Numbered from the stretch's first letter, positions 7,410 to 31,924 are shown. The stretch is DNA of 64,000 nucleotides from an uncultured Psychroserpens sp. (GCF_947503375.1 NZ_CANNDQ010000002.1:271182-335181); one strand, 5' to 3'. Translations and numbers: made by a program. The notes: generated by a model from the sequence alone, not told the origin.

Positions 7410-7448
7410 ATTTCTTTTTTAGAAACGGACTGTAAAAATACGCAAAAC

Positions 7449-7462
7449 ATGATAAAAATCAT
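7449..7462 (+). promoter_or_regulatory. Crp/Fnr-type palindrome ATGATAAAAATCAT upstream of ccoI-hemN
   Basis: TGAT-N4-ATCA core. The centre lies 29.5 bp from the -7-like box AAACTTTG (7485-7492). It is embedded in a 21-nt block identical to 11265-11285. Confidence 0.7.
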
Positions 7463-7517
7463 ATTATAACGTCTATTCATTTACAAACTTTGCATCAGGT
7501 ATAAATGAGCAAATATT

Positions 7518-9896
7518 ATGGAACAAACAACTTGTTTCCACTGCGGTGATGATTGTAACCATACAATTATAACCTTCAATAAAAAACACTTTTGTTGTAA
7601 TGGTTGTAAAACGGTATATGAGATTTTCTCTGAGAACGATTTAACGTGCTATTACGAGTTACAAACATCTCCAGGAGCAATTCCAAAGGAAATAGAAGGC
7701 AAATATGACTTCTTATCAGATGAAAGTATCATAGAAAAACTTATTGAGTTTAATGATGGAAGTACACAGATTACTACATTATACATTCCACATATCCATT
7801 GTAGTTCTTGCATTTGGATTTTGGAGAACCTCAATAAACTAAATCCAAATATTACGTCATCTCAAGTTAATTTTGGTAAGAAAACAGTTCGCATCACTTA
7901 TAACACGAGCAGCAATTCACTTAAAGATGTTGTTTTACTGCTTAGTGCTATTGGCTATGAACCTTATATCTCATTAGACGATTTTAAAACAGGAAAACAA
8001 AATGTAAACAGAGTATTAATCTACAAATTAGGAATAGCTGGTTTTGCTTTTGGTAATGTGATGTTCTTATCCTTTCCAGAATATTTTGAAGTAGAAGAGT
8101 TCTGGTTAGAACAATATAAACATCTATTTCGCTGGTTGATGTTTACGTTTTCGTTACCAGTCGTGTTTTATGCAGGACAAGATTATTTTATATCTGCTTA
8201 CAAAGGCTTACGGGCAAAGCTACTCAACATTGATGTTCCTATAGCGCTTGGTATTGCTGTATTATTCATAAGAAGTACAATTGAGATCAGCTTCAATATT
8301 GGATCTGGTTTTTTTGATAGTCTTACAGGGCTTGTATTCTTTTTATTACTCGGAAAGTTCTTTCAACAAAAAACATATACGTTCTTATCTTTTGAGCGTG
8401 ACTATAAATCCTATTTTCCAATTGCAGTTACTAAGATAGCAACTCACAGAAAAGAAATTCCTATTCAAGTTTATGATATAAAAAAGGGAGATCGACTCAT
8501 CATTAGAAATGAAGAACTCATTCCTGTTGATGCAATTCTTATAAACGGAAAAGCTAGAATTGATTACAGTTTTGTCACTGGCGAATCCAAAACTGTAAGT
8601 AAGCATTCGGGAGACAAACTATTTGCTGGTGGCAAGCAAACATCTGGAGTTATTGAAGTTGAGGCTATTAAATCTGTAGAACAAAGCTATCTAACCCAAT
8701 TATGGAGCAATGATGTATTCAATAAAAGTAAAGAAGACCATTTTAACACTTTGACCAATAAGATCAGTAAGCGCTTTACTATAGCAGTATTAAGTATTGC
8801 TGTAATAGCAACATCCTATTGGTTATTTACTGATGCTTCAAAAGCCATGAATGTATTTACGGCTGTGTTAATTATTGCCTGTCCTTGTGCCATAGCATTA
8901 TCAGCACCATTTACTTTTGGAAATTTACTACGCATTTTTGGGAAGCTAAAATTCTACGTAAAAAATGCAGCAGTTATTGAACAGTTAGCGGATATTAATA
9001 CTATAATCTTTGACAAAACTGGCACCATAACATCTAACAAAACAAGTACAGCAAATTATGAAGGTGCTGCATTAACCGAAACTGAAGAATTACTTCTAAA
9101 AAACACATTACGTGGTTCAAATCATCCGCTTAGCAGATCACTCTACGAAATCTTAGATGCTAATGATATTGTTTCTTTGAATCATTTTGAAGAGCACCTA
9201 GGTAAAGGAATTGAAGCCACATACAACAAAGATAATATCAAAATAGGATCTGCAAGCTTTGTTGGTGCAAGTGAAAATCAAGTATTGAACACTACTGTAC
9301 ACATCAGTACAAATAATACTTACAAAGGTAAATTTACGTTCTACAACAGTTACAGGAAAGGTTTATCAAAACTATTTAATACCCTTAAAAAACATTACGA
9401 TCTAGTGATTCTTTCTGGAGATAATGAAGGAGAATTAGAGAACCTCAAAAAAATGTTACCTACAAAAACAAAATTGATCTTTAACCAAAAACCCAACGAT
9501 AAGTTAGAATATATCAAGTATCATCAAACTGAAGGTGCTAAAGTACTCATGATTGGTGACGGACTCAATGATGCTGGTGCATTAGCACAAAGTAATATCG
9601 GTATTGCTTTATCAGAAAATGTAAATGTATTCTCACCTGCTTGTGATGCTATCATGGATGCTACAAAATTTAACCAACTCAATACATTCATTGACGCTTC
9701 TAAAAGTGCAATTAAGATTATTAAATGGAGTTTTGTTTTGTCTCTCATTTATAACATAGTTGGGCTCTATTTTGCTGTTACAGGCCAGTTAGCTCCAGTA
9801 GTGGCTGCAATATTAATGCCGTTGAGCTCAATTAGTGTTGTTGTGTTTACAACTATTGCTACAAATTTTATTGGAAGAAAACTATCAAAATCATGA
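7518..9896 (+). CDS. ccoI: copper-translocating P1B-type ATPase, cbb3 oxidase maturation (CcoI/FixI-type)
   Basis: N-terminal Cys-rich metal-binding segment (CFHCGDDC, CCNGCKTVYE). Also CPC (IIACPCAI), DKTGT and GDGLNDA motifs. Placed within the cco assembly cluster. Confidence 0.9.
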   Translation: MEQTTCFHCGDDCNHTIITFNKKHFCCNGCKTVYEIFSENDLTCYYELQTSPGAIPKEIEGKYDFLSDESIIEKLIEFNDGSTQITTLYIPHIHCSSCIWILENLNKLNPNITSSQVNFGKKTVRITYNTSSNSLKDVVLLLSAIGYEPYISLDDFKTGKQNVNRVLIYKLGIAGFAFGNVMFLSFPEYFEVEEFWLEQYKHLFRWLMFTFSLPVVFYAGQDYFISAYKGLRAKLLNIDVPIALGIAVLFIRSTIEISFNIGSGFFDSLTGLVFFLLLGKFFQQKTYTFLSFERDYKSYFPIAVTKIATHRKEIPIQVYDIKKGDRLIIRNEELIPVDAILINGKARIDYSFVTGESKTVSKHSGDKLFAGGKQTSGVIEVEAIKSVEQSYLTQLWSNDVFNKSKEDHFNTLTNKISKRFTIAVLSIAVIATSYWLFTDASKAMNVFTAVLIIACPCAIALSAPFTFGNLLRIFGKLKFYVKNAAVIEQLADINTIIFDKTGTITSNKTSTANYEGAALTETEELLLKNTLRGSNHPLSRSLYEILDANDIVSLNHFEEHLGKGIEATYNKDNIKIGSASFVGASENQVLNTTVHISTNNTYKGKFTFYNSYRKGLSKLFNTLKKHYDLVILSGDNEGELENLKKMLPTKTKLIFNQKPNDKLEYIKYHQTEGAKVLMIGDGLNDAGALAQSNIGIALSENVNVFSPACDAIMDATKFNQLNTFIDASKSAIKIIKWSFVLSLIYNIVGLYFAVTGQLAPVVAAILMPLSSISVVVFTTIATNFIGRKLSKS

Positions 9897-11257
9897 ACGC
9901 AACACTTATAAAAAAATATAATATTCCAGGCCCTAGATATACAAGTTATCCAACAGTTCCATTCTGGGACGAAGCGCAATTCTCAAAACATAAATGGATT
10001 GAAACTTTCAAAACTTCTTTTAAAGAAAGTAATGCTGATCAAGGAATTAGTTTATACATTCATCTTCCATTCTGTGAAAGTCTATGTACATTTTGTGCAT
10101 GTCATAAACACATTACTAAACGACATTCAGTAGAAGATAAATATATTGATACTATTCTTAAAGAATGGCAATTATACCTAGACTTGATGTCTTCAAAGCC
10201 TATAGTAAAAGAAATTCATTTAGGAGGTGGTACACCTACATTTTTCTCAGCTAATAATCTAGATCGTCTTATTAACGGATTATTAAAACCAGCTATACTC
10301 CATGAAAATTATGAATTTAGTTTTGAAGGTCATCCTAATAATACAACCAAAGATCAATTAAAAGCACTATATCATTTAGGCTTTACTCGCGTAAGCTTTG
10401 GAATTCAAGATTATGATCCTAAAGTACAGCACGCCATACACCGTATCCAAACCTTTGAACAAGTTGAAAAAGTCACAAAATGGTCTCGAGAAATTGGGTA
10501 TACATCTATAAGTCATGATCTCATTTTCGGCTTACCGTTTCAAACATTAGAGACCATCACACAAAGCATTGACAAAACTAAATTGTTAAGTCCAGATCGT
10601 ATTTCATTTTATAGTTATGCTCATGTGCCATGGGTAAAAGGTGTTGGTCAACGTGGCTTTAATGAAGCCGACTTACCTAAAGGCAATCAAAAAAGAGCAC
10701 TTTATGAAACTGGTAAAAAACTACTTACAGATTTAGGCTATAAAGAAATTGGCATGGATCATTTTGCGTTAGAAACAGATGACCTATATAAAGCTGCAAG
10801 CAATAAAACCTTACACAGGAACTTTATGGGCTATACCACTAATACAACCCAATTGATGATTGGTTTAGGAATGTCGGCTATAAGTGATAGTTGGTATGGG
10901 TTTGCACAGAATGTTAAGACCGTTAAAGCCTATGAAGAACTAGTTGAATCTGGTGATATTCCAGTATTTAGAGGTCATATTCTTACTAATGAAGATTTAA
11001 TAATTCGGCAACACATTTTAAACATTATGTGTCACATGGAAACGTCTTGGCAAAATGAATGCTCAAAATTCTCAAAACTAAGTCAAGTTATAGAAACTTT
11101 AGATGAATTGATAAACGATGGCATAATTCTGATAGAAAACAATGTCTTGAAAGTTCCCGAAATGGCCAAACCGTTTGTTAGAAATGTATGTATGGGGTTT
11201 GATCTAAGACTACATGATAGTTACCCTGAAACTCAAGTATTCTCTATGACAATATAA
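9893..11257 (+). CDS. hemN: oxygen-independent coproporphyrinogen III oxidase (radical SAM, HemN)
   Basis: Radical-SAM CxxxCxxC (CESLCTFCAC), GGGTPTF, and HemN-like length. ATGA start/stop overlap with ccoI. Confidence 0.9.
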   Translation: MNATLIKKYNIPGPRYTSYPTVPFWDEAQFSKHKWIETFKTSFKESNADQGISLYIHLPFCESLCTFCACHKHITKRHSVEDKYIDTILKEWQLYLDLMSSKPIVKEIHLGGGTPTFFSANNLDRLINGLLKPAILHENYEFSFEGHPNNTTKDQLKALYHLGFTRVSFGIQDYDPKVQHAIHRIQTFEQVEKVTKWSREIGYTSISHDLIFGLPFQTLETITQSIDKTKLLSPDRISFYSYAHVPWVKGVGQRGFNEADLPKGNQKRALYETGKKLLTDLGYKEIGMDHFALETDDLYKAASNKTLHRNFMGYTTNTTQLMIGLGMSAISDSWYGFAQNVKTVKAYEELVESGDIPVFRGHILTNEDLIIRQHILNIMCHMETSWQNECSKFSKLSQVIETLDELINDGIILIENNVLKVPEMAKPFVRNVCMGFDLRLHDSYPETQVFSMTI

Positions 11258-11268
11258 TTTTTTGAAAC

Positions 11269-11282
11269 ATGATAAAAATCAT
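11269..11282 (+). promoter_or_regulatory. Crp/Fnr-type palindrome ATGATAAAAATCAT upstream of ccoS-ccoNOQP
   Basis: Identical to the 7449 site. A perfect -7 box TAATTTTG at 11305-11312 starts 29.5 bp from the palindrome centre. Confidence 0.75.
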
Positions 11283-11332
11283 ATTCTAAGACTATAACCT
11301 AACGTAATTTTGAATCATAACTTCTAATAGGT

Positions 11333-11521
11333 ATGAGTGTTATATATATTTTATTGAGTATCAGCATTATTGTAGCTGTTGTGTTTTTTATTGCATTTAT
11401 AACTGCAGTAAAAAATGGACAGTATGATGATAGTTATACACCTTCTGTTAGAATGCTCTTTGAGGATGAACTTATCAAAGAGCAACCTGAACCATCTATT
11501 GATAAAAAAAAGACTAATTAA
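11333..11521 (+). CDS. ccoS: cbb3-type cytochrome oxidase assembly protein CcoS/FixS
   Basis: 62-aa single-TM protein with the CcoS-type motif AVKNGQYDD, immediately upstream of ccoNO. Confidence 0.85.
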   Translation: MSVIYILLSISIIVAVVFFIAFITAVKNGQYDDSYTPSVRMLFEDELIKEQPEPSIDKKKTN

Positions 11522-11527
11522 ATTATT

Positions 11528-13717
11528 ATGGAAGTACAACAGTTTCATTACGATAATAAAATCGTAAAAAATTTCCTCTATGCTACAATGCTTTGGGGAG
11601 TTGTCGGGATGTTAGTAGGATTACTACTAGCTTTTATGTTTTTATTCCCAAATTTAACCGACGGCGTTTCTTGGTTAAGCTTTGGGCGTTTAAGACCATT
11701 ACACACTAATGCAGTAATTTTTGCCTTTGTAGGTAATGCTATTTTTGCTGGTGTTTATTATTCAACACAGCGATTACTAAAAGCTAGAATGTTTAGCGAC
11801 CTTTTAAGTAAAATTAATTTTTGGGGCTGGCAATTGATTATTGTTGGTGCTGCAATAACATTACCTTTAGGCTACACCACATCAAAAGAATATGCCGAAT
11901 TAGAGTGGCCATTCGATATTGCTATAGCCATCATCTGGGTTGTTTTTGGGTGGAATTTAATTGCAACCATTTTAAAGCGTCGTCAGCGCCATTTGTATGT
12001 TGCCATCTGGTTTTATTTAGCAACATTTGTTACAGTTGCTGTACTACATATTTTCAATAGCTTAGAGTTACCAGTAAGCGGATTAAAAAGTTATTCTGTA
12101 TACGCAGGAGTTCAAGACGCCTTAGTACAATGGTGGTATGGTCATAATGCCGTAGCGTTCTTCCTTACTACGCCATTCTTAGGGCTGATGTACTACTTTG
12201 TTCCTAAAGCAGCAAACAGACCTGTATATTCGTATAGATTATCGATTGTGCACTTCTGGTCACTCATCTTCATCTATATATGGGCAGGACCGCATCATTT
12301 GTTATATACATCACTTCCTGGTTGGGCTCAAAATCTAGGAGTGGCATTTTCTGTCATGTTGATAATGCCTTCTTGGGGAGGAATGATCAACGGATTACTT
12401 ACACTTCGTGGAGCATGGGATAAAGTAAGAACAGATCCTGTATTAAAATTCATGGTAGTAGCTATTACAGGATATGGTATGGCTACTTTTGAAGGACCTA
12501 TGCTATCATTAAAAAGTGTAAATGCAATGGCTCATTTTACAGATTGGATTATTGCTCACGTTCATGTAGGAGCTTTGGCCTGGAATGGTTTTCTAACCTT
12601 TGGAATGATCTATTTCTTAGTGCCTAAACTATTTAAAACACGATTGTACTCTACTGGATTAGCAAACCTTCATTTTTGGATTGGCACCTTAGGAATCATT
12701 TTTTATGCACTTCCAATGTATGTTGCTGGCTTTACACAATGGGCTATGTGGAAACAATTCAACCCAGATGGAACGTTAGTTTATGGTAACTTCTTAGAAA
12801 CGGTTACTGAAATTATTCCAATGTATTGGATGCGAGCTATAGGTGGTACATTATTCATCGTAGGTATGTTAATTATGGTCGTTAATATAATCATAACCAT
12901 AATGAATGGTAGCAAAGTTGGAGATGAACTCGCAGAAGCACCTGCACTACAAAGAGTGTCAAAGAAACGTGTTGCTGGAGAAGGTTGGCATACCTGGTTA
13001 GAGCGCAAGCCAATAAAACTTACCATTTTTGCTACAATTGCTATTCTAATTGGAGGTATTGTTCAAATTATTCCAACATTATTGGTCAAATCTAATATCC
13101 CAACCATTACTAGTGTAAAACCTTATACCCCTTTAGAATTAGAAGGTCGAGATATCTACATAAGAGAGGGTTGTGTAGGTTGCCACTCACAAATGATTAG
13201 ACCTTTTAGAAATGAAGTTGAGCGTTATGGAGAATACTCAAAAGCTGGAGAATTTGTGTATGATCATCCATTCCTTTGGGGAAGTAAACGCACAGGACCA
13301 GATTTACATCGCATCGGTGGTAAATATTCTGACAACTGGCATTTAAATCATATGTATGATCCACAGAGTACCTCATCTGGCTCTATTATGCCTGCTTATC
13401 AATGGTTAGTAAGAAATGAACTTGATAAATCACAAACCGAAGCTAAAATGAAAGCTATGGTATCATTAGGCGTTCCTTACACCGATGAAGACATTGCTAA
13501 TGCGCAACAATCAATGCAAGACCAAGGAACTCAAATTGAAAAGAATCTTTACACCGATCCAGATTTTGCGCAAACCTATGAAGCAGATAAACAAGCTGGA
13601 GGTGAAGAATTTATTGAAATGCGCAATAGGGAAATTGTAGCTATTATCGCTTATTTACAACGTCTTGGAACTGATATTAAAGTAAAAGACGCTGAAGTTT
13701 CAACAACTCAAAACTAA
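11528..13717 (+). CDS. ccoNO: cbb3-type cytochrome c oxidase, fused subunits I and II (CcoN-CcoO)
   Basis: The N-terminal multi-TM heme-copper oxidase domain carries conserved His contexts (GHNAVAF, GPHHLLYT, AHVHVGALAWNG). It is fused in frame to a CcoO-like monoheme domain (REGCVGCHSQMIRP). Confidence 0.92.
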   Translation: MEVQQFHYDNKIVKNFLYATMLWGVVGMLVGLLLAFMFLFPNLTDGVSWLSFGRLRPLHTNAVIFAFVGNAIFAGVYYSTQRLLKARMFSDLLSKINFWGWQLIIVGAAITLPLGYTTSKEYAELEWPFDIAIAIIWVVFGWNLIATILKRRQRHLYVAIWFYLATFVTVAVLHIFNSLELPVSGLKSYSVYAGVQDALVQWWYGHNAVAFFLTTPFLGLMYYFVPKAANRPVYSYRLSIVHFWSLIFIYIWAGPHHLLYTSLPGWAQNLGVAFSVMLIMPSWGGMINGLLTLRGAWDKVRTDPVLKFMVVAITGYGMATFEGPMLSLKSVNAMAHFTDWIIAHVHVGALAWNGFLTFGMIYFLVPKLFKTRLYSTGLANLHFWIGTLGIIFYALPMYVAGFTQWAMWKQFNPDGTLVYGNFLETVTEIIPMYWMRAIGGTLFIVGMLIMVVNIIITIMNGSKVGDELAEAPALQRVSKKRVAGEGWHTWLERKPIKLTIFATIAILIGGIVQIIPTLLVKSNIPTITSVKPYTPLELEGRDIYIREGCVGCHSQMIRPFRNEVERYGEYSKAGEFVYDHPFLWGSKRTGPDLHRIGGKYSDNWHLNHMYDPQSTSSGSIMPAYQWLVRNELDKSQTEAKMKAMVSLGVPYTDEDIANAQQSMQDQGTQIEKNLYTDPDFAQTYEADKQAGGEEFIEMRNREIVAIIAYLQRLGTDIKVKDAEVSTTQN

Positions 13718-13723
13718 TTCATT

Positions 13724-13909
13724 ATGCTAAAGTTCGTAAAAAACCATATGGAAAGCATCACAGGAATAGAAATCTATCCAATGATTTCCTTACTCATATT
13801 TTTCAGTTTTTTCGTCATCCTCTTTTGGTGGGTAATTACTGCAAAAAAAGACTACATCAAAAAGGTGAGTCATATTCCTTTAGATAACCAAAACACCACA
13901 GAATTATGA
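13724..13909 (+). CDS. ccoQ: small single-TM cbb3 oxidase subunit (CcoQ/FixQ-like)
   Basis: 61-aa ORF with one TM helix between ccoNO and ccoP. ATGA overlap with ccoP. Called from position and size rather than a strong motif. Confidence 0.7.
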   Translation: MLKFVKNHMESITGIEIYPMISLLIFFSFFVILFWWVITAKKDYIKKVSHIPLDNQNTTEL

Positions 13910-14871
13910 GACAGTTTTTCCCATCTTGGATAAGAGTACCTCTTGTATTCTTCATTATTTTCGGAGTCGTAGAATACTTTATTGACTCTGGTGACAAACC
14001 AGCATTTATTGAAGAACCGCTTGTTTTACTCTTCTTATTTTTAGTATTGCTAATCATTATCGCTGTAGAAGCTATCGTAGGTTCTATAGGTAACATCTTA
14101 TATCAAAGTTTAGACGCAGAAGCAAAAGCTAGATATGATGCAAAACAAAATGCGCCTTCCAAATTAGCACTTTGGGTTAAGAAAACTTATTTAAAACTAT
14201 TAGGTTCAAAACCAATTGAAGAAGAATATGATATCATTCTAGATCATAATTATGATGGCATAAAAGAGCTGGATAATGATTTACCACCATGGTGGCTATA
14301 TGGTTTCTATGCTACTATTATTTTTGGAGCAATATACTTAGTTAGATATCATGTGTTTAATGGAGAGGATCAATATGAAGAGTTAGATGCTGAAATTGCT
14401 CAAGCAAAAATTGATATTGAAACCTATAAAAAAACAGCTAAAGATCTAGTTGATTTCAATACAGTTACTGTTCTCACAGAATTGAGCGATTTGAAAGCTG
14501 GTCAAGCCATTTTTGAAACCAATTGTGTTGCTTGTCATAAAGCTGATGGTGGTGGTGGAATTGGTCCTAACTTAACCGATAAACATTGGGTTTTAGGTGG
14601 TGGAATTAAAAATGTATTTAAAACTGTTTCTGAAGGTGGACGTGATGGTAAAGGTATGATTGCTTGGAAACAAAGTTTAAAACCTTCTGAAATTGCTCAG
14701 GTTTCAAGTTACGTGTTGCAATTTCAAGGTACTTCTCCAGCTGAGCCTAAAGCCCCTGAAGGCGAAATATGGGTAGATGAAAGCGCTCCGATTGAAGATA
14801 TTCCAACTGAAGAAATGGAAGTGAAAACAGATTCAATAATCACTATTGAATCTACAGAAACAGAAGATTAA
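13906..14871 (+). CDS. ccoP: cbb3-type cytochrome c oxidase subunit III (CcoP), monoheme form
   Basis: TM helices, a CcoP N-terminal-type segment (DHNYDGIKELDNDLPPWW), and a single c-type heme motif CVACH (nt 14524-14538). Confidence 0.85.
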   Translation: MRQFFPSWIRVPLVFFIIFGVVEYFIDSGDKPAFIEEPLVLLFLFLVLLIIIAVEAIVGSIGNILYQSLDAEAKARYDAKQNAPSKLALWVKKTYLKLLGSKPIEEEYDIILDHNYDGIKELDNDLPPWWLYGFYATIIFGAIYLVRYHVFNGEDQYEELDAEIAQAKIDIETYKKTAKDLVDFNTVTVLTELSDLKAGQAIFETNCVACHKADGGGGIGPNLTDKHWVLGGGIKNVFKTVSEGGRDGKGMIAWKQSLKPSEIAQVSSYVLQFQGTSPAEPKAPEGEIWVDESAPIEDIPTEEMEVKTDSIITIESTETED

Positions 14872-14924
14872 TTGGTAGGACTTTCAAGATCATTATTTAT
14901 TGAAAATCGTAACAACATATTGTC

Positions 14925-16349: not shown

Positions 16350-16363
16350 ATAAAAAGAGCATT

Positions 16364-17512: not shown

Positions 17513-17548
17513 ACGCATTACTATACTATCTACTTATTTGAATACAAA

Positions 17549-17562
17549 CTGATATAAGTCAT
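17549..17562 (+). promoter_or_regulatory. Crp/Fnr-type box CTGATATAAGTCAT upstream of usp/PNPOx-like operon
   Basis: TGAT-N4-GTCA core. The -7-like box TAACTTTA at 17585-17592 has the same 29.5-bp offset. Confidence 0.6.
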
Positions 17563-17606
17563 ACTTTTCTCGAATTGAATTATGTAACTTTAAGATACAT
17601 AATTCA

Positions 17607-18440
17607 ATGACCATGAAAAAGATCATTCTATTAACCGATTTCTCCGATAACGCGCTTGATGCTATTCACTATAGTATGCGCTTTTTTTCGTCAGAAAAAT
17701 GCATATTCTACTTGATGCATGTTCATAAGGCTGGTTCGTTTATTTCAGATGATTTAATGACCTCTTCATCCGAAAGTATTTACGAATCAATTACGAAAGC
17801 TCCACGAGAAAAGCTAAATACCTTAGCTGAAAACCTCAAAAAACAATACAATAACTCTAATCATACATTTGGGATTATTATTGATTTTGATGTCTTTACA
17901 GATGCCGTAAATCAAGCTATAAAAACCTATGATATAGATATTGTCATCATGGGTTCAAATGGTATTTCTGGTGTTAAAGAAGTGATCTTCGGAAGTAATA
18001 CTTTAAACGTCATTAGAGGTGTAATATGTAAAACATTGATTATACCCAATAATTACATGTTTAAACCAGCTAAGAACTTTTTACTTCCGCTACAAGATAA
18101 AGACATCATCAATGAAGAACAAATCAACCTTGTAAATGAATTTACAAAAAAGCAACAACTTAAACTTCATGTATTAAGAGTATGCTCAAAAGAAAAAATT
18201 GTTGAAACAATACGAACTGACAACTCAAAACTCAACACTACCAGTTGCAATTACAATATAGAATCTTCTAAATTCTTTGACGCTGTAATTGATTACTTAG
18301 AAGTTCATGACATAGATTTAATGGGATTGATTGTTCATGATAAGTCATTCATTGAACGCTTATTTACCGAATCGCCTACTATTAAATTGAGCAAAGTCAT
18401 TAAATTACCGTTACTGATTTTTCACTCATCAGAACATTAA
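17607..18440 (+). CDS. universal stress protein (tandem USP domains)
   Basis: Two USP-like alpha/beta modules (KIILLTDFSDNA ... VIMGSNGISGVKEVIFGSNT ... PLLIF). An Fnr-type box lies upstream. Confidence 0.8.
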   Translation: MTMKKIILLTDFSDNALDAIHYSMRFFSSEKCIFYLMHVHKAGSFISDDLMTSSSESIYESITKAPREKLNTLAENLKKQYNNSNHTFGIIIDFDVFTDAVNQAIKTYDIDIVIMGSNGISGVKEVIFGSNTLNVIRGVICKTLIIPNNYMFKPAKNFLLPLQDKDIINEEQINLVNEFTKKQQLKLHVLRVCSKEKIVETIRTDNSKLNTTSCNYNIESSKFFDAVIDYLEVHDIDLMGLIVHDKSFIERLFTESPTIKLSKVIKLPLLIFHSSEH

Positions 18441-18452
18441 AATTAAAATCTT

Positions 18453-18902
18453 ATGATAAAAAATCTTGATCGAATTGAATGCGAACTGATATTAAAACAG
18501 AACTACATTGGTCATTTGGCTTACGTATACCAAAACAAACCTTTTGTTATTCCAATAACTTATTTCTTCAATGCTAATAAAATTATTTGCTATTCTGGAG
18601 AAGGTCATAAAATCAATGCAATGCGTAAACATGCTCCAGTTGCTCTTGAAGTTTCAGACATTACTTCTGTTAATCATTGGCAATCTATAGCTGTACATGG
18701 TAGTTATGAAGAATATGAAGGTAGTGAGGCCAAAGCACTATTGCATGAGTTTTCTTTAGGAATTAAAGATATTATTATGACCAAAGAACGGCGTGACTTA
18801 GATTTTATAAGTGAATTCTCGGCCAAAATTGCTAAAAACGATATTCCAATAGTATTCGTTATCAATATTGAAGAAATCACCGGAAAGATGAGGCGTAAAT
18901 AG
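18453..18902 (+). CDS. pyridoxamine 5'-phosphate oxidase-like (split-barrel flavin-binding) family protein
   Basis: The N-terminal segment (ECELILKQNYIGHLAYVYQNKPFVIPITYFF) is typical of Pyridox_ox_2-type proteins. It starts 12 nt after usp. Confidence 0.7.
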   Translation: MIKNLDRIECELILKQNYIGHLAYVYQNKPFVIPITYFFNANKIICYSGEGHKINAMRKHAPVALEVSDITSVNHWQSIAVHGSYEEYEGSEAKALLHEFSLGIKDIIMTKERRDLDFISEFSAKIAKNDIPIVFVINIEEITGKMRRK

Positions 18903-18910
18903 AGCTTCTT

Positions 18911-20071
18911 TTATGTGAAAGGCACTTTTTTTCTATCTCGCTTTATAAAATGAATTTTATCTTCAATAACAACCTTCTTCCTGTAACCAAATAAATGAAA
19001 CACTTTGGTAGTTAAAAATAAAGCTATCCGTCTATTAGCAATAAGGCAATACGTGTTTTCTGGGTGTTTACTTATTCCTGGAAGAAGCCTCAATAACTGA
19101 TGAAATTTTAGACTTCTTAGGACAGTAGATAAAACTAACCAGAAACGAGAAAGCTTTCTTACAATAAAAAAACCATCTTCACCTTGTTTTTGATAGAGTG
19201 GCATAAAAATGAGACCATTTAACGGACTCTTTATTTCACTTACGCCATCGTGAGCTAATAATTGATGTTTAATTACCTGTGTAAAATTTTTAAATCCAGA
19301 ACACATTTCAAACTCATTAGTCTCAGCTAAAGAGTGCCTATACATTATTTCATAAAACCCTTTTTCTATATGTAGCAATTTATCATACTCTTTATAAGAA
19401 ATTAAATGTTTATTTACCATACTTAGTTTTTCCATAACCAGCCAAACAAATGCTTCGCAGTATAATATAGACTTTTCATCATCATGCTTCCCAGCTTCAA
19501 AACCTATAGACACATGACCAAACTCATTGATATAAGACAATAGAGGCCCATCTAAATACTCCTCTATACCAAGAACGATAGGAATATTAAATTTGTCTGC
19601 CAAAGACCTATTATTTAGCGAATCGCTTATAGTGATAAATGGAATTGTTGAAGAAGACGTTGTATGAAGGTCTACGAACACTAAATTACCATTGTGTTTT
19701 TTACTTATATCTTTAATGGTATTGTAAAGTTCGTATTGTTCTCTTTGCTCTTCAAATTCAAAATATTTACTGTCATTCAACACTTTGATATCGTCTTCAG
19801 ACCATAATCTATTAAGATCAAAATCCTTATATCTAATTCCAGCTTCAAAAGCACTTATGTTTCCTAACAAAGCATAAAAATTACCATTGATTTTTATGGC
19901 TTTAGATACGATGTCTTCAACAATTTTTCTCAGGCCTAAAACACCTGCTGGTTCATTTCCATGAATACCTCCAATACATACTAATGTTGTTGCATTGTCA
20001 ATATGACTTTGGCTGTATATAATTCTATTTGTGACAGTCTTGTTGATAGGTTCTGTTATGGTTTTAATCAT
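18911..20071 (-). CDS. succinylglutamate desuccinylase/aspartoacylase (AstE/AspA) family Zn-hydrolase with unknown C-terminal extension
   Basis: Zn-ligand motifs GGIHGNEPAG and VDLHTTSS. A C-terminal extension of about 150 aa is uncharacterised. Its start codon directly abuts the stop of the upstream ligase-CBS gene. Confidence 0.75.
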   Translation of the reverse strand: MIKTITEPINKTVTNRIIYSQSHIDNATTLVCIGGIHGNEPAGVLGLRKIVEDIVSKAIKINGNFYALLGNISAFEAGIRYKDFDLNRLWSEDDIKVLNDSKYFEFEEQREQYELYNTIKDISKKHNGNLVFVDLHTTSSSTIPFITISDSLNNRSLADKFNIPIVLGIEEYLDGPLLSYINEFGHVSIGFEAGKHDDEKSILYCEAFVWLVMEKLSMVNKHLISYKEYDKLLHIEKGFYEIMYRHSLAETNEFEMCSGFKNFTQVIKHQLLAHDGVSEIKSPLNGLIFMPLYQKQGEDGFFIVRKLSRFWLVLSTVLRSLKFHQLLRLLPGISKHPENTYCLIANRRIALFLTTKVFHLFGYRKKVVIEDKIHFIKRDRKKVPFT

Positions 20072-21937
20072 CTACTGCAAGTTAAGTTTTTCTAAATCGG
20101 TAATGGTAAAGATACCTACTAACTCATTATGGTCTAATACTGGCAAACAACTGATTCCATGATTATACATGAGTTGCTTAGCATCTTCAATACGCATTTC
20201 TGGATAAGCAGTTTTTATATCTTTTTGCATGATATCACATGCAGATTGATCGTCGTATTTTTCTTCTTTAGAGATATCATTTTGATAGATCACACCAACG
20301 ATCTTATTGTCTTTATTGATAACAGGAATATGATGAATACGTTTCCATTTCATAATTTTCTTAATCAAACGAACAGAATCATTTTCGTTTACTGTAAAAA
20401 TCTTTGTAGACATTACTTTGTATATCTTATTTTGAGAAAAAGCATCTCCTTTATCAAAGGTCTTGGCAAGTTTCCACTCACTAACGGGTACATCCTCTTT
20501 TTGGTTCTTATGTAAATGATAAGTGAGTAATATATTAGCTTCGTCTCTTGACACTACTTCTTGGAGTTTTCTGCTGCTTCGTACAAGCCATTTACTACCT
20601 GATGTATTTTTATCTATTCGGTCTTTTATGATGTTCAAATAGAATTCAATATCTACAGGATCGACATTTGCTTTAATGAGTCCGTCATGAGCCATAGGTA
20701 ATAGAATATGCTTTGCTAGATCTTTTGCCGATATGCCTTCATTAAACCAATTAAAATAAGTATCCATTCCTGTTCTTGCTGCTTTTATAAAATTACCTGT
20801 TGCATCTTTGAACGACATTCGCTTCCAGATAGATTTACAGTCTTCAGGCATTCCTAACATGACACCAACCCAAAACATAGCATTTGCAATTTCGTCTTTA
20901 ATGCTTGGTCCAGATGGGATATATCTATTTTCAATACGCAAATGCGCTATATTATTATGTACACCATAACATACGCGATTCCATTTATAGAGTGTTCCGT
21001 TATGCAACCCAAGAGCTTTCAATTCTGGTTTGATACCCTTCTTTAAATCATTAACTGCATTCCCTTCCAAATCTGATGTTACCAAAGGTGCGTAATGTGC
21101 TACATCGTCTGTGAATACATCTAAAATTGAATCTCTGATCCAGTCGTTCCCAAAAGACACTCTAGGCTTTTCTTCTCTTAGTAAATGTGCTTTATTTCTA
21201 GTATCTATACTTTGCTGAAAAAGTGCTATTCGAGTTTCACTCCAAAGTTCTCTACCCAAAAGCATAGGTGAATTTGTCATTACAGATAATACTGGTCCTG
21301 CAATAGCTTGCGACCAATTGTATTGATCTATAATATGCTCTAAATCGATTTGTAAGTGTACTTGAAAACTTGTATTGCATGCTTCAAATAAAATAGATTC
21401 ATGATCTAGAATCAACTCATCTATACCTCTAACCTGTACTCTAAAATCTTTCCCTCTAACCTTGCGCATCACATCATTTAAAACCTTATAACGTTGATGT
21501 GGTGTCATATTTTCAAAAACGAGGTCTTTGCGTTTAAAAGTTGGAAGTATTCCTGCGAGAATAATTTTGTTTTGATCGATACTATTAGCACATAGCTTGG
21601 CTTTATCTACCAAATTGAATAAGTCGGTTTCCATTTGAGAAAAACACTTCCCACTTAATACTAATGGATCTAAATTGGCTTCTATATTAAAAAGTCCGAG
21701 CTCTGTTGTAAAATGTTTGTCATCAATTTCATCTAATATCTGTAAGGCGTTAAATGATGGCCTATAATATTTATCTACAATGCACAATTCTTGCTCTGCA
21801 CCTATGCGCTGTGTTCCTTTCTCGAAAGCATCAGTTTCAATCATTAGCTTTAATGCCTCTAAATCATTTAATAAATGATTAATGAATTGCTTGCGTTGAG
21901 ACTGGTTAGTAATTGGTTGAACTGATTGTGATCCCAT
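20072..21937 (-). CDS. GCS2/YbdK-like carboxylate-amine ligase fused to a C-terminal CBS-domain pair
   Basis: N-terminal motifs IGAEQELCIVD and NTSFQVHLQI resemble glutamate-cysteine ligase family 2. The last ~130 aa form two CBS motifs (IHHIPVINKDNKIVGVI, ISCLPVLDHNELVGIFTITDL). Confidence 0.7.
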   Translation of the reverse strand: MGSQSVQPITNQSQRKQFINHLLNDLEALKLMIETDAFEKGTQRIGAEQELCIVDKYYRPSFNALQILDEIDDKHFTTELGLFNIEANLDPLVLSGKCFSQMETDLFNLVDKAKLCANSIDQNKIILAGILPTFKRKDLVFENMTPHQRYKVLNDVMRKVRGKDFRVQVRGIDELILDHESILFEACNTSFQVHLQIDLEHIIDQYNWSQAIAGPVLSVMTNSPMLLGRELWSETRIALFQQSIDTRNKAHLLREEKPRVSFGNDWIRDSILDVFTDDVAHYAPLVTSDLEGNAVNDLKKGIKPELKALGLHNGTLYKWNRVCYGVHNNIAHLRIENRYIPSGPSIKDEIANAMFWVGVMLGMPEDCKSIWKRMSFKDATGNFIKAARTGMDTYFNWFNEGISAKDLAKHILLPMAHDGLIKANVDPVDIEFYLNIIKDRIDKNTSGSKWLVRSSRKLQEVVSRDEANILLTYHLHKNQKEDVPVSEWKLAKTFDKGDAFSQNKIYKVMSTKIFTVNENDSVRLIKKIMKWKRIHHIPVINKDNKIVGVIYQNDISKEEKYDDQSACDIMQKDIKTAYPEMRIEDAKQLMYNHGISCLPVLDHNELVGIFTITDLEKLNLQ

Positions 21938-21986
21938 AATATTTGTACATGATTATCAAATTTAAAACATTAACACCAATGCTTTT

Positions 21987-22000
21987 ATGACTTTTGTCAT
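21987..22000. promoter_or_regulatory. perfect palindrome ATGACTTTTGTCAT shared by divergent promoters
   Basis: -7 boxes sit at the same 29.5-bp offset on both sides. TAAATTTG is on the minus strand (21957-21964). TACCTTTA is on the plus strand (22023-22030). Confidence 0.7.
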
Positions 22001-22056
22001 AGTAAAACTTTTATGATAATGCTACCTTTATTATGAACTAATAAATACTGTTAATC

Positions 22057-22476
22057 ATGAAAAAAAGAACACCTATTTCAGCAATTATGACCAAAGATGT
22101 CATTACACTAAATCATACAGACAATCTGGATAATGCAGAATCATTGTTTAAAAAACATAATATTAGACACATTCCAGTTGTAAGTGGCAACGAAATTATA
22201 GGCATGTTGAGTTACACCGATTTGTTACGTATAAGTTTTGCTGATGCCATTGATGAAGATGAAAGTACTGTAGATACTATTGTGTATAACATGTTTACTA
22301 TAGAACAAGTTATGGCTAAAAACTTGACTAGTGTTAGCCCAACTACAACCATAAAAGAAACTGCAGAAATTCTTTCAAAAAAAGAATTCCATGCTTTACC
22401 AGTAGTTGAAGATGGAAATCTTGTTGGCATCGTAACAACGACAGACCTAATCAATTATTTACTTGAACAATTTTGA
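22057..22476 (+). CDS. stand-alone CBS-domain pair protein
   Basis: 139 aa made of two CBS motifs (IRHIPVVSGNEIIGMLSYTDL; FHALPVVEDGNLVGIVTTTDL). Confidence 0.85.
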   Translation: MKKRTPISAIMTKDVITLNHTDNLDNAESLFKKHNIRHIPVVSGNEIIGMLSYTDLLRISFADAIDEDESTVDTIVYNMFTIEQVMAKNLTSVSPTTTIKETAEILSKKEFHALPVVEDGNLVGIVTTTDLINYLLEQF

Positions 22477-22566
22477 AGTTATTGAATAATAAAACTTATT
22501 GACAAGGTCATAAAAGCAATTGTTTTTATTAGTTTAGATGACTAATACTAAGTGATAATTGCTTTT

Positions 22567-22580
22567 ATGACTTTTATCAT
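22567..22580 (+). promoter_or_regulatory. Crp/Fnr-type box ATGACTTTTATCAT upstream of CoA-transferase gene
   Basis: The core and its 5' flank (GCTTTT) are nearly identical to the 21987 site. The -7-like box AACCTTTA at 22603-22610 has the same offset. Confidence 0.6.
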
Positions 22581-22636
22581 TTTAAATAAACAATCAACGA
22601 GCAACCTTTACGCTTTTAACACTTATAAAAAATAAC

Positions 22637-23917
22637 ATGAATACTCCAAAAACAGTCACTGCAAGGGAAGCTGTGTCTATCGTTAAATCAAATGATCGTG
22701 TATTCTTTCAAGGTGCAGCAATGACTCCAAATTTACTTATAGATAATTTGTGTGATCGCTACCAAGAACTTAATAATGTTCAAATTATTCAAATACATAC
22801 CGATGGTGAAGCCAAATATATGGAAGCACCTTATAGTAATTCATTTAAACTATACAGTTGTTTTGTAGGTAGCAACGTAAGGAAAGGTGTCAATTCTAAT
22901 AATGGTGATTATATTCCTATTTTTTTAAGTGAGATACACTTGCTATTTAGAAGAGCCATCTTGCCGCTAGATGTTGCTTTTATTCAAGTATCTCCACCAG
23001 ACAAACATGGTTATTGTTCTTTAGGCACTTCAGTAGACGTTACGTTACCAGCAATACAAACTGCAAAAGCTGTAGTAGCTTTAGTAAACCCTCAAGTTCC
23101 AAGAACGCATGGAGATGGTATCATACACATGAAAAATATAGATTATGCTGTTGAGATAGATAAACCTATTCATCAAGCTGTTTCTCAAGAACTTTCAGAA
23201 ACTGAACGTAAAATTGGTAAATACGTTGCCGAATTAGTAGAAGATGGTGCTACTTTACAAATGGGAATAGGAAATATTCCAAATGCGGTATTACACAACC
23301 TAACCAACCATAAAAGACTTGGAATTCATACTGAAATGTTTTCTGACGGTATTTTACCACTAATTGAAAAAGGAATCATTACTGGCGAAGAAAAAGAAAT
23401 TAAAACTGGGAAGATTGTCACCTGTTTTACCGTTGGTACCCAAAAACTGTATAACTTTATTGACGATAACCCTCTCGTTCATTTCAAAGAAGCTGGTTAC
23501 ACTAATGATACTTCAATTATAAAACTAAACCCAAAAGTAACAGCTATTAACAGTGCTATAGAAATAGATATTACTGGACAAGTCTGCGCTGATACCATTG
23601 GCAAATATCAATATTCTGGAGTTGGAGGACAAATGGACTTTATACGAGGTGCATCACTATCTAAAGGTGGTAAAGCTATTTTCGCAATGCCGTCAATAAC
23701 CACAAAAGGCGTTTCAAAGATATCGTCGTTTTTGAAAGAAGGCGCTGGAGTGACTACTACAAGAGCTCATGTACATTACGTGGCTACAGAATATGGTGTG
23801 GTTAACTTATTTGGAAAAAGCTTAAAGCAACGCGCTGAAGCTTTAATCTCTATATCACATCCAAACTTTAGAGAAGCATTAGAGCGTGATGCACATAATA
23901 GGTTCTCTAATTTGTAA
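22637..23917 (+). CDS. acetyl-CoA hydrolase/transferase family protein (4-hydroxybutyrate/succinyl-CoA:acetate CoA-transferase-like)
   Basis: Family motifs MGIGNIPNAV, GVGGQMDF and ATEYGVVNL. 426 aa. Confidence 0.8.
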   Translation: MNTPKTVTAREAVSIVKSNDRVFFQGAAMTPNLLIDNLCDRYQELNNVQIIQIHTDGEAKYMEAPYSNSFKLYSCFVGSNVRKGVNSNNGDYIPIFLSEIHLLFRRAILPLDVAFIQVSPPDKHGYCSLGTSVDVTLPAIQTAKAVVALVNPQVPRTHGDGIIHMKNIDYAVEIDKPIHQAVSQELSETERKIGKYVAELVEDGATLQMGIGNIPNAVLHNLTNHKRLGIHTEMFSDGILPLIEKGIITGEEKEIKTGKIVTCFTVGTQKLYNFIDDNPLVHFKEAGYTNDTSIIKLNPKVTAINSAIEIDITGQVCADTIGKYQYSGVGGQMDFIRGASLSKGGKAIFAMPSITTKGVSKISSFLKEGAGVTTTRAHVHYVATEYGVVNLFGKSLKQRAEALISISHPNFREALERDAHNRFSNL

Positions 23918-23923
23918 CTCAAT

Positions 23924-23956
23924 AAAAAAGAAGCCAGATAAAATCTGGCTTTTTTA
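23924..23956. terminator. bidirectional rho-independent terminator
   Basis: Stem AGCCAGAT (23932-23939) / ATCTGGCT (23943-23950), flanked by A6 and T6 runs. Confidence 0.8.
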
Positions 23957-23975
23957 TAAACTATAATTTTAAGAA

Positions 23976-24809
23976 TTAGATCTTAAATGTTAGTACTGGT
24001 AATGTAGAGTGGTTAGCAATATCTTCACCTATACTTCCACTAAAAAAATGAGCAATACCCTTTCTTCCATGAGTAGGTACAGCAATTAAGTCGGCGCCTA
24101 CAATATTAGAAAAATTCAACACGCCACTTTCTACAGTATAATCTGAAATATAATGCACATTATTAATAGCATTTACGTTTCCATCAGCTTTTTCTAAAAA
24201 CCTAGCTACAGTAGCTTCCATTTCTGTAGAACTTTTAAAACGCTCTCCTGGTAAGTTAACATAAAGTAGTTTTAAATCTGATCCAGAATCTTTAAAAAAC
24301 TGTCTCGCTTTTAGATAAGGTGCTACCATTTCATCACTAAAATCACATGCAAATACAACGGTTTCAACTTGAACACTTTCAGGTTTTTGTTTAACTACTA
24401 GCACAGGAATGTTTGAATGTCTTACCACTTTCTCTGTATTAGACCCAACGAAAATCTCTGATAAACCACTTGAGCCATGAGAACCCATTACAATAAGATC
24501 TGCACTGTGGTCTTCAGCAACTTCACTTACCTCACTAAACACCTTAAAATGTTTAACAATAGGAATGATTTTTACACCTTTGAGGTAATCTCGACTTAAA
24601 AAATCTTCGAATTTTTGTTCAGCCAATTTCAAAAAGAAAACAGCTTTAGCTTGCTGCTCATTATCTGAATCGGTTAAAATATTATTTGCCATCTCCAACA
24701 TATGCAATGCTAATATTTCAGCATTATTCTTTTTAGCAAGCATCGCTGCAGTTTGAAGTGCATATTCAGAATGTTCAGAAAAATCTATTGGTACTATTAT
24801 TTTATCCAT
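23976..24809 (-). CDS. universal stress protein (tandem USP domains)
   Basis: Two USP modules (KIIVPIDFSEHS ... VMGSHGSSGLSEIFVGSNT ... VPTHGRKGIAHFFSGSIGE). An Fnr-type box and a perfect -7 box lie upstream. Confidence 0.85.
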   Translation of the reverse strand: MDKIIVPIDFSEHSEYALQTAAMLAKKNNAEILALHMLEMANNILTDSDNEQQAKAVFFLKLAEQKFEDFLSRDYLKGVKIIPIVKHFKVFSEVSEVAEDHSADLIVMGSHGSSGLSEIFVGSNTEKVVRHSNIPVLVVKQKPESVQVETVVFACDFSDEMVAPYLKARQFFKDSGSDLKLLYVNLPGERFKSSTEMEATVARFLEKADGNVNAINNVHYISDYTVESGVLNFSNIVGADLIAVPTHGRKGIAHFFSGSIGEDIANHSTLPVLTFKI

Positions 24810-24923
24810 TTTAAAAATTTTAGTTAAAAGATTATTTAGTTATAAGTATAAGGTATTTCCTACTAATAGAAAAACACATCATCAATTTGATAACAAAATT
24901 AGAGGTTATCCCTTAGAAAAAAG

Positions 24924-24937
24924 ATGACATAAATCAT
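24924..24937 (-). promoter_or_regulatory. Crp/Fnr-type box ATGACATAAATCAT upstream of minus-strand usp
   Basis: A perfect minus-strand -7 box TAATTTTG (24894-24901) sits exactly 29.5 bp from the palindrome centre. Confidence 0.65.
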
Positions 24938-26261: not shown

Positions 26262-26264
26262 CAA

Positions 26265-31874: not shown

Positions 31875-31924
31875 GGCTTTGGTGTTTAATTAGTATCAAG
31901 TTAGCCCATAAAACCAAAAAAAAA

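Follow-up and report, generated by a model that had tools for sequence, protein, structure and literature searches.

Seven short palindromes in a 64,000-nucleotide stretch of DNA from an uncultured Psychroserpens sp. (GCF_947503375.1, NZ_CANNDQ010000002.1:271182-335181; the whole stretch is called the window below) define a well-supported regulon that is a phylum-specific variant of the known FNR design. The palindromes are probably operators of the Crp/Fnr-family regulator encoded at 6732-7409, which would activate eight promoters in the class II manner and would sense oxygen through a cysteine-ligated iron-sulfur (Fe-S) cluster. The palindrome is a conserved cis-element, and selection keeps its offset from the -7 box of the promoter fixed, both between genera and in front of at least 15 gene families that are not related to one another. 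The sites are confined to promoters, they are linked to the regulator gene, and the regulator itself carries distinctive cysteine and helix signatures; from these observations we infer the identity of the binder, activation by binding, the Fe-S chemistry and oxygen as the signal. A first-pass annotation of the window had proposed a putative low-oxygen regulon of six palindromes and seven promoters. Its regulon is well supported by the sites, their spacing and their conservation, and low oxygen is, for the organism of the window, the probable signal.

Palindromes confined to intergenic DNA

The pattern ATGAYN4RTCAT has six exact matches in the window (starting at 7449, 11269, 21987, 22567, 24924 and 31926), where 0.64 are expected, and none of 100 dinucleotide-preserving shuffles reached six. 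The site at 17549, CTGATATAAGTCAT, fits the core TGAYN4RTCA. This 12-mer core taken alone is found ten times against 6.4 expected, an enrichment that is not significant, which indicates that the flanking A and T are informative. A 14-mer position weight matrix (PWM) was built from other genomes only and run over both strands of the window; seven sites scored 13 bits or more, all of them intergenic, and the next best match, at 11.4 bits, lies in coding DNA. The intergenic share of the window is about 6% (4.0 kb), and the density of PWM matches is seven in these 4.0 kb as opposed to none in 60 kb of coding DNA, while composition-matched shuffles of the same intergenic DNA gave 0.055 matches. All six palindromes of the first-pass annotation are thus present where it had placed them; the correct count is seven sites and eight promoters, the addition being 31926-31939, which lies beyond the range that it covered (Table 1). 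Chance occurrence or AT-rich noise is ruled out by the shuffles, by the coding and intergenic densities and by the conservation of the motif across genomes.

A fixed distance between palindrome and -7 box

The seven -7 boxes that had been assigned to the palindromes are all in place, 22 nt past the 14-mer and hence 29.5 bp from the centre of the site, and the same offset holds for an eighth. These eight boxes carry zero to two mismatches to TAnnTTTG. In a composite scan for site and box at the fixed spacer, exactly eight promoter orientations reached 14 bits or more (0.02 in shuffles), consisting of the seven orientations already annotated and the minus-strand side of the site at 31926. The -7-like box of the latter, TAACTTGA, is near the TAnnTTGY type found at -12 to -5 in Flavobacterium psychrophilum, with A instead of C/T as its last base.

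Comparison was made with 80 loci around ccoNO homologues (L001-L080), 48 of which belong to the Flavobacteriaceae, including close relatives, and the rest to Cytophagales, Sphingobacteriales and other Bacteroidota, and with a second set of 13 metagenomic contigs that were chosen via the X-CBS protein (Table 1) and were not used for matrix training. For the geometry, every TGAYN4RTCA in the 48 Flavobacteriaceae loci was taken in both orientations, with no preselection, and TAnnTTTG with at most one mismatch was counted at each offset. A box stands at a spacer of exactly 22 nt in 130 of the 366 orientations, 59 of them with an exact match; other spacers mostly gave one to nine matches, about four, with minor peaks of 10-19 at spacers of 8-9, 32-33 and 44-45. 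The positions within the 22-nt spacer hold about 0-0.2 bit each (134 promoters). Spacer length is therefore kept while spacer sequence drifts, which speaks against simple inheritance, and the same spacing precedes at least 15 unrelated gene families.

The operator model derived from the 134 promoters reads AAAn[A/C]TGA[C/T]AAAT[A/G]TCATnTTTT; its promoter-proximal flank is T in 94%, and its distal flank has frequencies of 56% for A, 38% for C and 0% for T. Within the -7 box of these related promoters, A is found in 98%, TTT in 97-99% and G in 80%. The box of ccoI begins with T in four of 46 loci and reads [G/A/C]AnnTTTG, T having a frequency of 67% in the whole promoter set; it is systematically weakened, in a manner specific to this one target. 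Promoters of the E. coli sigma-70 type were also considered and were rejected, with 89 found and 90 expected, i.e. no enrichment.

Position relative to mapped transcription start sites

According to Guerin et al. (2021, PMC9723704), the sigma-A box of F. psychrophilum, TAnnTTTG, spans -12 to -5. A box at this position followed upstream by a 22-nt spacer places the centre of the palindrome at -41.5, the class II position. The portion of the F. psychrophilum table of transcription start sites (TSSs) considered here yielded two motif-bearing TSSs. One of them, THC0290_T_0050, is attributed to SigA with a motif probability of 0.97 and is given with a 61-nt sequence (TGAtgatatttatcatttttttaAGTCATAACATAGCCTACTTTTGAAgtaac..., legend range -50 to +10; PMC9723704). 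This promoter consists of ATGATATTTATCAT, 22 nt, TACTTTTG at -12 to -5 and the TSS, with the site centre at -41.5. The gene encodes a cytochrome c551/c552 and belongs to co-expression cluster C52 together with the cbb3 operon and hemN, which are induced by oxygen limitation (PMC9723704). The distance from box to TSS and the induction of cbb3, hemN and the cytochrome c gene by oxygen limitation are thus taken from the literature on F. psychrophilum.

In the aligned promoters, positions -33 to -30 are T-rich and have G in only 1%; the canonical -33 TTTG is therefore absent, which fits activator-dependent promoters. The promoters of the window are accordingly predicted to combine the Bacteroidota sigma-A box TAnnTTTG, at -12 to -5, with an operator near -41.5 in place of the upstream element, as in class II activation, the TSS evidence coming from a related species. 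The earlier suggestion of a class II geometry centred near -40 is borne out, the promoter map of F. psychrophilum giving an offset of -41.5.

Conservation of the sites in related genomes

Most ccoNO loci have a TGAYN4RTCA about 250 bp upstream of ccoNO, before ccoS; in many loci from outside the Flavobacteriaceae, the site is found instead about 90 bp upstream of ccoNO. Most Flavobacteriaceae loci have a further site between the divergently transcribed regulator gene and ccoI, and the hemN, USP (universal stress protein), CoA-transferase, CBS and X-CBS genes, where present in the loci, also have sites. The intergenic density is 0.6-1.2 per kb compared with 0.006-0.02 per kb in coding DNA (80 further loci), being about 100-fold over shuffled intergenic DNA in the loci and 50- to 100-fold over coding DNA in both sets. 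A homologue of the regulator is encoded in 51 of the 80 loci, and beside a site in most Flavobacteriaceae loci.

Promoters with the 22-nt spacer are found before ccoS (53 loci), ccoI (37), hemN (18), the two USP types (14 and 8), X-CBS (8), the CBS-pair gene (7), a second Crp/Fnr paralogue (6) and the CoA-transferase gene (2). Orthologues of the 277-aa usp at 17607 have site and box in 14 loci; the USP/PNPOx-like gene pair recurs with its site in L082, L083 and L089, orthologues of the tandem USP have sites in L001, L016, L082-L084 and L086, and those of the CoA-transferase in L028 and L078. The divergent spacer between X-CBS and CBS genes in L081-L087 has one site with a -7 box at a 22-nt spacer on both sides. 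A TonB-like homologue in L087 (38% identity) is preceded by a site and then TAATTTAG at a 22-nt spacer, which supports the seventh site of the window. The first-pass annotation had extended the regulon to the USPs, a CBS protein, the X-CBS/deacylase operon, the CoA-transferase and the PNPOx-like gene; these conserved sites uphold the extension for all except the PNPOx-like gene, which has no site of its own and is included only as a follower of usp1. The 22-nt layout also precedes genes for Hsp20, ScdA/RIC, a cytochrome c lipoprotein, a NirK-type nitrite reductase, a truncated globin and a PAS histidine kinase, and these extra members fit a theme of hypoxia and nitrosative stress. The predicted regulon comprises cbb3, its assembly genes, hemN and an adjacent regulator gene, i.e. 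what is expected of an FNR core regulon.

Many cbb3 promoters from outside the Flavobacteriaceae contain a pair of sites at a distance of exactly 22 bp, and in other such loci a degenerate proximal CTAAy-N4-RTCAT at -41.5 is accompanied by a perfect distal one, with its box at spacer 44 and its centre at about -63.5 (examples within L049-L080: L051, L055, L058, L059, L071 and L074; L054, L061-L064 and L069). From the arrangement of the motifs, this looks like a two-dimer architecture. A family of 403-610 aa starting ..HSFHIPVMGLGYTIDSP.., with no Pfam match, stands behind a 22-nt-spacer palindrome in three distant genomes (L034 4486-, L047 4597- and L075, minus strand, downstream of site 6907), which belong to two Flavobacterium species and Hufsiella.

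An FNR-like regulator beside the first site

The annotation of a Crp/Fnr regulator at 6732-7409, adjoining the first site, agrees with both Pfam and NCBIfam, and the adjacency is kept in most Flavobacteriaceae loci. The protein has the domains of the Crp/Fnr superfamily (PF00027, 9e-19; PF13545, 2e-15; PF00325, 1e-5), and its top NCBIfam model is Fnr (NF008365), at 91.7 bits with a cut-off of 228. It does not qualify as CRP (59.8 bits, cut-off 266; half-sites 4 bp apart, not 6 as in TGTGA-N6-TCACA) or as FixK, which has no sensory cysteine cluster and is expressed under FixLJ (64.5 bits, cut-off 300; conserved four-cysteine set present; FixLJ was not searched for). It also departs from FNR proper in the family model, in the four ligands (Cys20, Cys23, Cys29 and Cys122) and in the E-x-x-S-R helix that reads TTGAT-N4-ATCAA. 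Judged by its sequence, the regulator is therefore best described as FNR-like but not canonical FNR.

The best relatives of the regulator in the PDB are a P. gingivalis Crp/Fnr protein and Aliivibrio fischeri FNR. In the HMMER alignment to the latter, Cys4 and Cys7 correspond to the first two cluster cysteines and Cys106 to Cys122, while Asn13 stands at the third cluster cysteine (E. coli Cys29) and Cys53 faces an alanine. All 43 orthologues from the loci have Cys53, and each of Cys4, Cys7 and Cys106 occurs in 42 of them; the position of FNR Cys29 is never Cys, being Asn or Ser in nearly all. A putative FNR-like subfamily of Bacteroidota comprises 154 clusters at 50% identity with E-values of 1e-30 or better. 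Among 130 full-length representatives (50% identity clustering), Cys4 is kept in 105, Cys7 in 108 and Cys53 and Cys106 within 101-113 (the four counts, listed in order, are 105, 108, 101 and 113), with Cys at the Cys29 position in three. The orthologue of L042 has no Cys106, an N-terminal C-x2-C-x6-C and a retained Cys53, a pattern weakly consistent with Cys53 as a possible ligand. From the jelly-roll topology, we presume that the strands bearing Cys53 and Cys106 are neighbours.

The recognition helix reads E-S-A-I-R (GTATESAIR), compared with E-T-I-S-R in A. fischeri FNR; Glu191 is found in 123 and Ile194 in 112 of the 130 representatives, giving the pattern E-[ST]-x-I-R. The outer T of the proteobacterial half-site TTGAT is missing from the palindromes, which coincides with the change from Ser to Ile in the helix. 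The helix serine of E. coli FNR is reported to read this outer T. Public databases name these proteins only "Crp/Fnr family" or "CRP-like cAMP-binding".

The promoter of the regulator gene

Site 1 is centred at about -27.5 relative to the regulator gene's own promoter. A box at a spacer of 8-9 is found in 21 of 33 regulator-oriented sites (L001-L048), with the site near -27.5/-28.5, and the secondary peak at spacers 8-9 belongs almost wholly to the regulator genes' own promoters. Overlap with the core promoter at this position points to negative autoregulation. Autorepression from site 1, which in the proposed scheme also activates ccoI, is probable on grounds of this position. The first-pass annotation had paired it with the box at 7485; it overlaps the promoter of the regulator gene as well.

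In L005 (6866) and L007 (2956), a second Crp/Fnr paralogue, 31-35% identical and without C-x2-C, stands under a class II-type promoter, and some genomes may thus have a two-tier cascade comparable to FnrL-Dnr. The spacer-22 promoter of L011 (site 7260) belongs instead to the regulator's own orthologue, which keeps C-x2-C. A hairpin with a 13-bp stem at 6695-6728, between the regulator gene and a convergent sortilin-like gene, is likely a bidirectional terminator, and a hairpin of a similar kind lies at 23931-23951, between the CoA-transferase and tandem-USP genes.

Genes under the palindromes and their neighbours

The gene families named in the first-pass annotation are confirmed by Pfam and NCBIfam (Table 1), except that the label "ligase" for 20072-21937 is not. 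The sole basis of this label is a GCS2 match of a homologue of X-CBS at 16.6 bits, which is below the cut-off. The N-terminal 490 aa of X-CBS have no Pfam match at E-values up to 1, a 15-sequence X-CBS profile run against the PDB gave CBS-domain matches only, and the AlphaFold model is poor (pLDDT 60.5), Foldseek having matched the CBS pair only. The N-terminal domain (20480-21937, minus strand) is highly conserved, with many invariant residues across 15 homologues, and an AstE/AspA-type deacylase gene always follows. The TonB_C gene is a probable eighth target.

Table 1. Sites, -7 boxes and genes of the regulon and its surroundings, in coordinates of the window.
Feature	Position	Strand	Context or product	Evidence
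Site 1, ATGATAAAAATCAT	7449-7462		divergent spacer, regulator gene/ccoI	pattern, PWM
Site 2, ATGATAAAAATCAT	11269-11282		upstream of ccoS	pattern, PWM
Site 3, CTGATATAAGTCAT	17549-17562		upstream of usp gene	core match, PWM
Site 4, ATGACTTTTGTCAT	21987-22000		one site for two divergent promoters	pattern, PWM
Site 5, ATGACTTTTATCAT	22567-22580		upstream of CoA-transferase gene	pattern, PWM
Site 6, ATGACATAAATCAT	24924-24937		upstream of tandem-USP gene	pattern, PWM
Site 7, ATGATAATTATCAT	31926-31939		upstream of TonB_C gene	pattern, PWM, composite scan
-7 box TATTTTTA	7433-7440	-	regulator's own promoter, 8 nt from site 1	
-7 box AAACTTTG	7485-7492	+	ccoI-hemN promoter	
-7 box TAATTTTG	11305-11312	+	cbb3 operon promoter	
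-7 box TAACTTTA	17585-17592	+	usp promoter	
-7 box TAAATTTG	21957-21964	-	X-CBS/deacylase operon promoter	
-7 box TACCTTTA	22023-22030	+	CBS-pair gene promoter	
-7 box AACCTTTA	22603-22610	+	CoA-transferase promoter	2 mismatches
-7 box TAATTTTG	24894-24901	-	tandem-USP promoter	
-7-like box TAACTTGA	31896-31903	-	TonB_C gene, 22-nt spacer	2 mismatches
Regulator gene	6732-7409	-	Crp/Fnr family, 225 aa	Pfam cNMP_binding, HTH_Crp_2
ccoI	7518-9896	+	fixI-type P-type ATPase	Pfam, NCBIfam
hemN	9893-11257	+	overlaps ccoI	NCBIfam 413.6 bits, above equivalog cut-off
ccoS-ccoNO-ccoQ-ccoP-ccoG-ccoH-DsbD_2 cluster	11333-17512	+	cbb3 oxidase and assembly	
ccoS	11333-11521	+		Pfam FixS
ccoNO	11528-13717	+	fused gene	Pfam COX1, FixO
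ccoP, ccoG, ccoH, DsbD_2-family gene	13906-17512	+		FixP_N, Fer4_18/FixG_C, FixH, DsbD_2
usp1	17607-18440	+	USP, 277 aa	Pfam Usp
PNPOx-like gene	18453-18902	+		Pfam Pyridox_ox_2
Deacylase gene	18911-20071	-	AstE/AspA family	Pfam AstE_AspA_cat
X-CBS	20072-21937	-	621 aa; 490-aa uncharacterised N-terminal domain and CBS pair	Pfam CBS
CBS-pair gene	22057-22476	+	stand-alone CBS-pair protein, 139 aa	Pfam CBS, twice
CoA-transferase gene	22637-23917	+	acetyl-CoA hydrolase/transferase family	Pfam AcetylCoA_hydro, AcetylCoA_hyd_C
Tandem-USP gene	23976-24809	-	tandem-domain USP, 277 aa	Pfam Usp, two stretches
sodC	25014-25640	+	Cu/Zn superoxide dismutase	
TonB_C gene	31119-31874	-	TonB_C-domain protein, 251 aa	Pfam TonB_C

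Repression of sodC by site 6 was considered and rejected: TATATTTT is found at spacer 9 on the sodC side in the window, and this box is not conserved in L082, L083, L084 and L086. Further downstream, two pairs of ECF sigma factor and RskA-type anti-sigma genes (25734-27068 and 29756-31113, plus strand) flank peroxiredoxin and fasciclin genes; next to the Cu/Zn superoxide dismutase gene, they may form an oxidative-stress island adjoining the low-oxygen cluster. Two adjacent open reading frames (35745-36317 and 36342-36992, minus strand) match a single DUF4331 model in its C-terminal and its N-terminal part, which could reflect a split gene, a frameshift or an assembly error; they lie upstream of genes for a TPR protein and a TonB-dependent receptor.

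Discussion

In the mechanism that we propose, the seven palindromes, which have the form [A/C]TGAY-N4-RTCAT between an A-tract and a T-tract, would serve as operators for the regulator encoded at 6732-7409. A dimer bound at -41.5 would replace the usual -33 promoter element and recruit polymerase carrying the Bacteroidota housekeeping sigma factor to the -7 box. The class II promoters would be those of ccoI-hemN, of ccoS-ccoNOQP-ccoGH-dsbD2, of usp with the PNPOx-like gene and of X-CBS/deacylase, together with those of the divergent CBS-pair gene, which would use the same single site as X-CBS, and of the CoA-transferase, tandem-USP and TonB-like genes. Site 1, near -27.5 of the regulator promoter, would bring about negative autoregulation, and falling oxygen would be sensed via an Fe-S cluster on Cys4, Cys7, Cys106 and the clade-specific Cys53.

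Several observations weigh against this proposal. The regulator scores far under the NCBIfam cut-off for Fnr and does not have the fourth canonical FNR ligand (E. coli Cys29), for which reason the Fe-S cluster is not assured. Both the TSS and the expression evidence come from the related F. psychrophilum rather than from the organism of the window, and the second motif-bearing TSS in the portion of the F. psychrophilum table considered, that of a PAS-domain gene, maps at -39.5, with a low confidence of promoter assignment. Within the window, two of the boxes (22603 and 31903) have two mismatches. Other Crp/Fnr paralogues in related genomes could share the motif. Finally, orthologous promoters are not independent and the raw counts exceed the number of independent events, a point that is offset by the fact that at least 15 unrelated families of genes share this spacing.

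Three other explanations were weighed, and none of them fits the data as well as class II activation by the FNR-like regulator in response to oxygen. The first retains the cis-regulon as described and changes the signal, which would be a thiol/disulfide or metal-dependent redox switch, as is reported for Lactobacillus FLP, or else nitric oxide or heme. The missing equivalent of FNR Cys29 and the NCBIfam score under the Fnr cut-off would agree with such a signal, and the NirK-type, ScdA/RIC and globin genes under the motif in some related loci hint at a nitrosative component. We nevertheless consider it unlikely, given that three of the four conserved cysteines stand at FNR ligand positions, that the core targets (cbb3, hemN and ccoGHIS) are classic low-oxygen genes, and that, in F. 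psychrophilum, oxygen limitation induces their orthologues as well as a motif-bearing promoter. It is the oxidised form of FLP that is active, and a redox switch of this kind would give the wrong sign of regulation.

It is also conceivable, with a very low probability, that a different Crp/Fnr paralogue, encoded elsewhere, binds the palindromes and that the neighbouring gene is not cognate. Related genomes do have a second paralogue of about 228 aa and Crp-like proteins of about 350 aa near the cco genes, and motif sharing is frequent among Crp/Fnr paralogues. However, most Flavobacteriaceae loci have the 225-aa gene in divergent linkage with a site, which is kept 8-9 nt from the -7 box of the regulator gene itself; no second Crp/Fnr gene is found within the 64-kb window, and the E-x-x-I-R helix is conserved in a clade whose half-site never has the outer T. 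A role of the sites as repressor operators that occlude the -33 region in air is the least probable of all: the sites do span the position of the -33 element and site 1 is in a repressing position at about -27.5 of the regulator promoter, but repression requires overlap with the promoter and not a spacing that is exact to the base, class II activation has as its hallmarks an invariant spacer (here of 22 nt) on one helical face and single sites that serve two divergent promoters symmetrically, and the canonical -33 TTTG is absent (G 1%), as in activator-dependent promoters.

A more far-reaching synthesis can tentatively be put forward, to which we give less than even weight. Bacteroidota would have a large FNR-like subfamily of their own, in which the fourth ligand has moved from Cys29 to Cys53 of the beta-roll and Ile has replaced Ser in the helix together with a shift of the half-site. 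Its members would act in the class II manner on -33/-7 promoters, with a two-site architecture outside the Flavobacteriaceae, in which a strong site at -63.5 would assist a degenerate one at -41.5. They would control a phylum-wide hypoxia programme that includes enzymes without known function (the 490-aa domain of X-CBS and the AstE-like deacylase), which may produce or clear a low-oxygen metabolite that has so far gone unrecognised.

On marine particles and in fish tissue, where oxygen drops fast, much of the degradation of organic matter is due to flavobacteria. Their switch to micro-oxic respiration had previously been tied to no regulator, and a candidate is named here. The literature yielded no FNR-type regulator, operator or regulon for Flavobacteriaceae or other Bacteroidota, the coverage of subscription journals being thin and an earlier description possible; in a PNA-microbiome study, Crp/Fnr homologues of Flavobacteriales were assigned a MalR-like role in carbon sensing. 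The outcome of the analysis is a precise operator model, a promoter rule (site, 22 nt, -7 box) and a list of targets. Two USP types, the CBS-pair protein, X-CBS with its deacylase partner and the PNPOx-like protein, all so far uncharacterised, are thereby given a low-oxygen context. Conceptually, the regulon extends FNR biology in an expected direction and brings no new principle. Although the housekeeping promoters of Bacteroidota are not of the -35/-10 type, the class II geometry at -41.5 persists in this phylum, and it makes the contacts between activator and polymerase there accessible to experiment.

The closest expression counterpart is the hypoxia stimulon of F. psychrophilum, in which oxygen limitation jointly induces the cbb3 operon, hemN and a monoheme cytochrome c gene (PMC9723704). 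The promoter of this cytochrome c gene has the same palindrome at -41.5. No regulator or operator was named in that study, which predicted sigma-factor motifs only (PMC9723704); its main text does not contain the words Fnr, Crp or palindrome, and Fnr and Crp are likewise absent from the portion of its supplements considered here.

With regard to the regulator, the comparison is with E. coli and A. fischeri FNR (PDB 5cvr, 5e44 and 9qlt). The Crp/Fnr fold, the N-terminal C-x2-C, the equivalent of Cys122, the Glu and Arg of the helix, the core half-site TGAY with 4-bp spacing, the class II position at -41.5 and the presence of hemN and cbb3-type oxidase genes among the targets are shared. The differences lie in the replacement of Cys29 by Asn or Ser, in the invariant Cys53, which is Ala in FNR, in a helix of E-x-x-I-R instead of E-x-x-S-R, in an outer half-site base that is A or C and never T, and in the -7/-33 promoters of Bacteroidota. 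Bacillus subtilis Fnr, whose cluster ligands are three C-terminal cysteines and one aspartate, offers a precedent for a sensor of the FNR type with a ligand set other than that of E. coli; its cluster is C-terminal, whereas the candidate ligands here are located at the N-terminus and in the beta-roll.

The content of the regulon has its nearest parallel in the FNR core regulon of Alphaproteobacteria, which comprises a P-type ATPase, cbb3 subunits, the oxygen-independent coproporphyrinogen oxidase, uspA and the regulator itself (Dufour et al. 2010, PMC2908626). The core is nearly identical, and the gene of the alphaproteobacterial FnrL/FNR also adjoins cco genes (PMC2908626). The inclusion of USPs, put forward in the first-pass annotation as an extension, is supported as far as membership goes, and is expected rather than surprising, since uspA is part of this core. 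In contrast to the alphaproteobacterial system, whose motif is TTGAT-N4-ATCAA, the one described here belongs to another phylum and also takes in the X-CBS/deacylase operon, the CBS-pair protein, the CoA-transferase and the TonB-like gene.

A functional analogy can be drawn with DosR of M. tuberculosis, whose low-oxygen regulon is rich in USPs and includes a stand-alone CBS-pair protein, Hrp1/Rv2626c. USPs and a CBS-pair protein are common to both regulons, and Hrp1/Rv2626c is among the CBS structural matches obtained here; a specific link between the two CBS-pair proteins was nevertheless rejected, the similarity being generic to CBS domains, and DosR, a two-component response regulator, belongs to an unrelated family. 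The FNR logic is the known part of the system, and what is new here is the phylum, the type of promoter, and the altered set of cysteines and DNA-reading residue.

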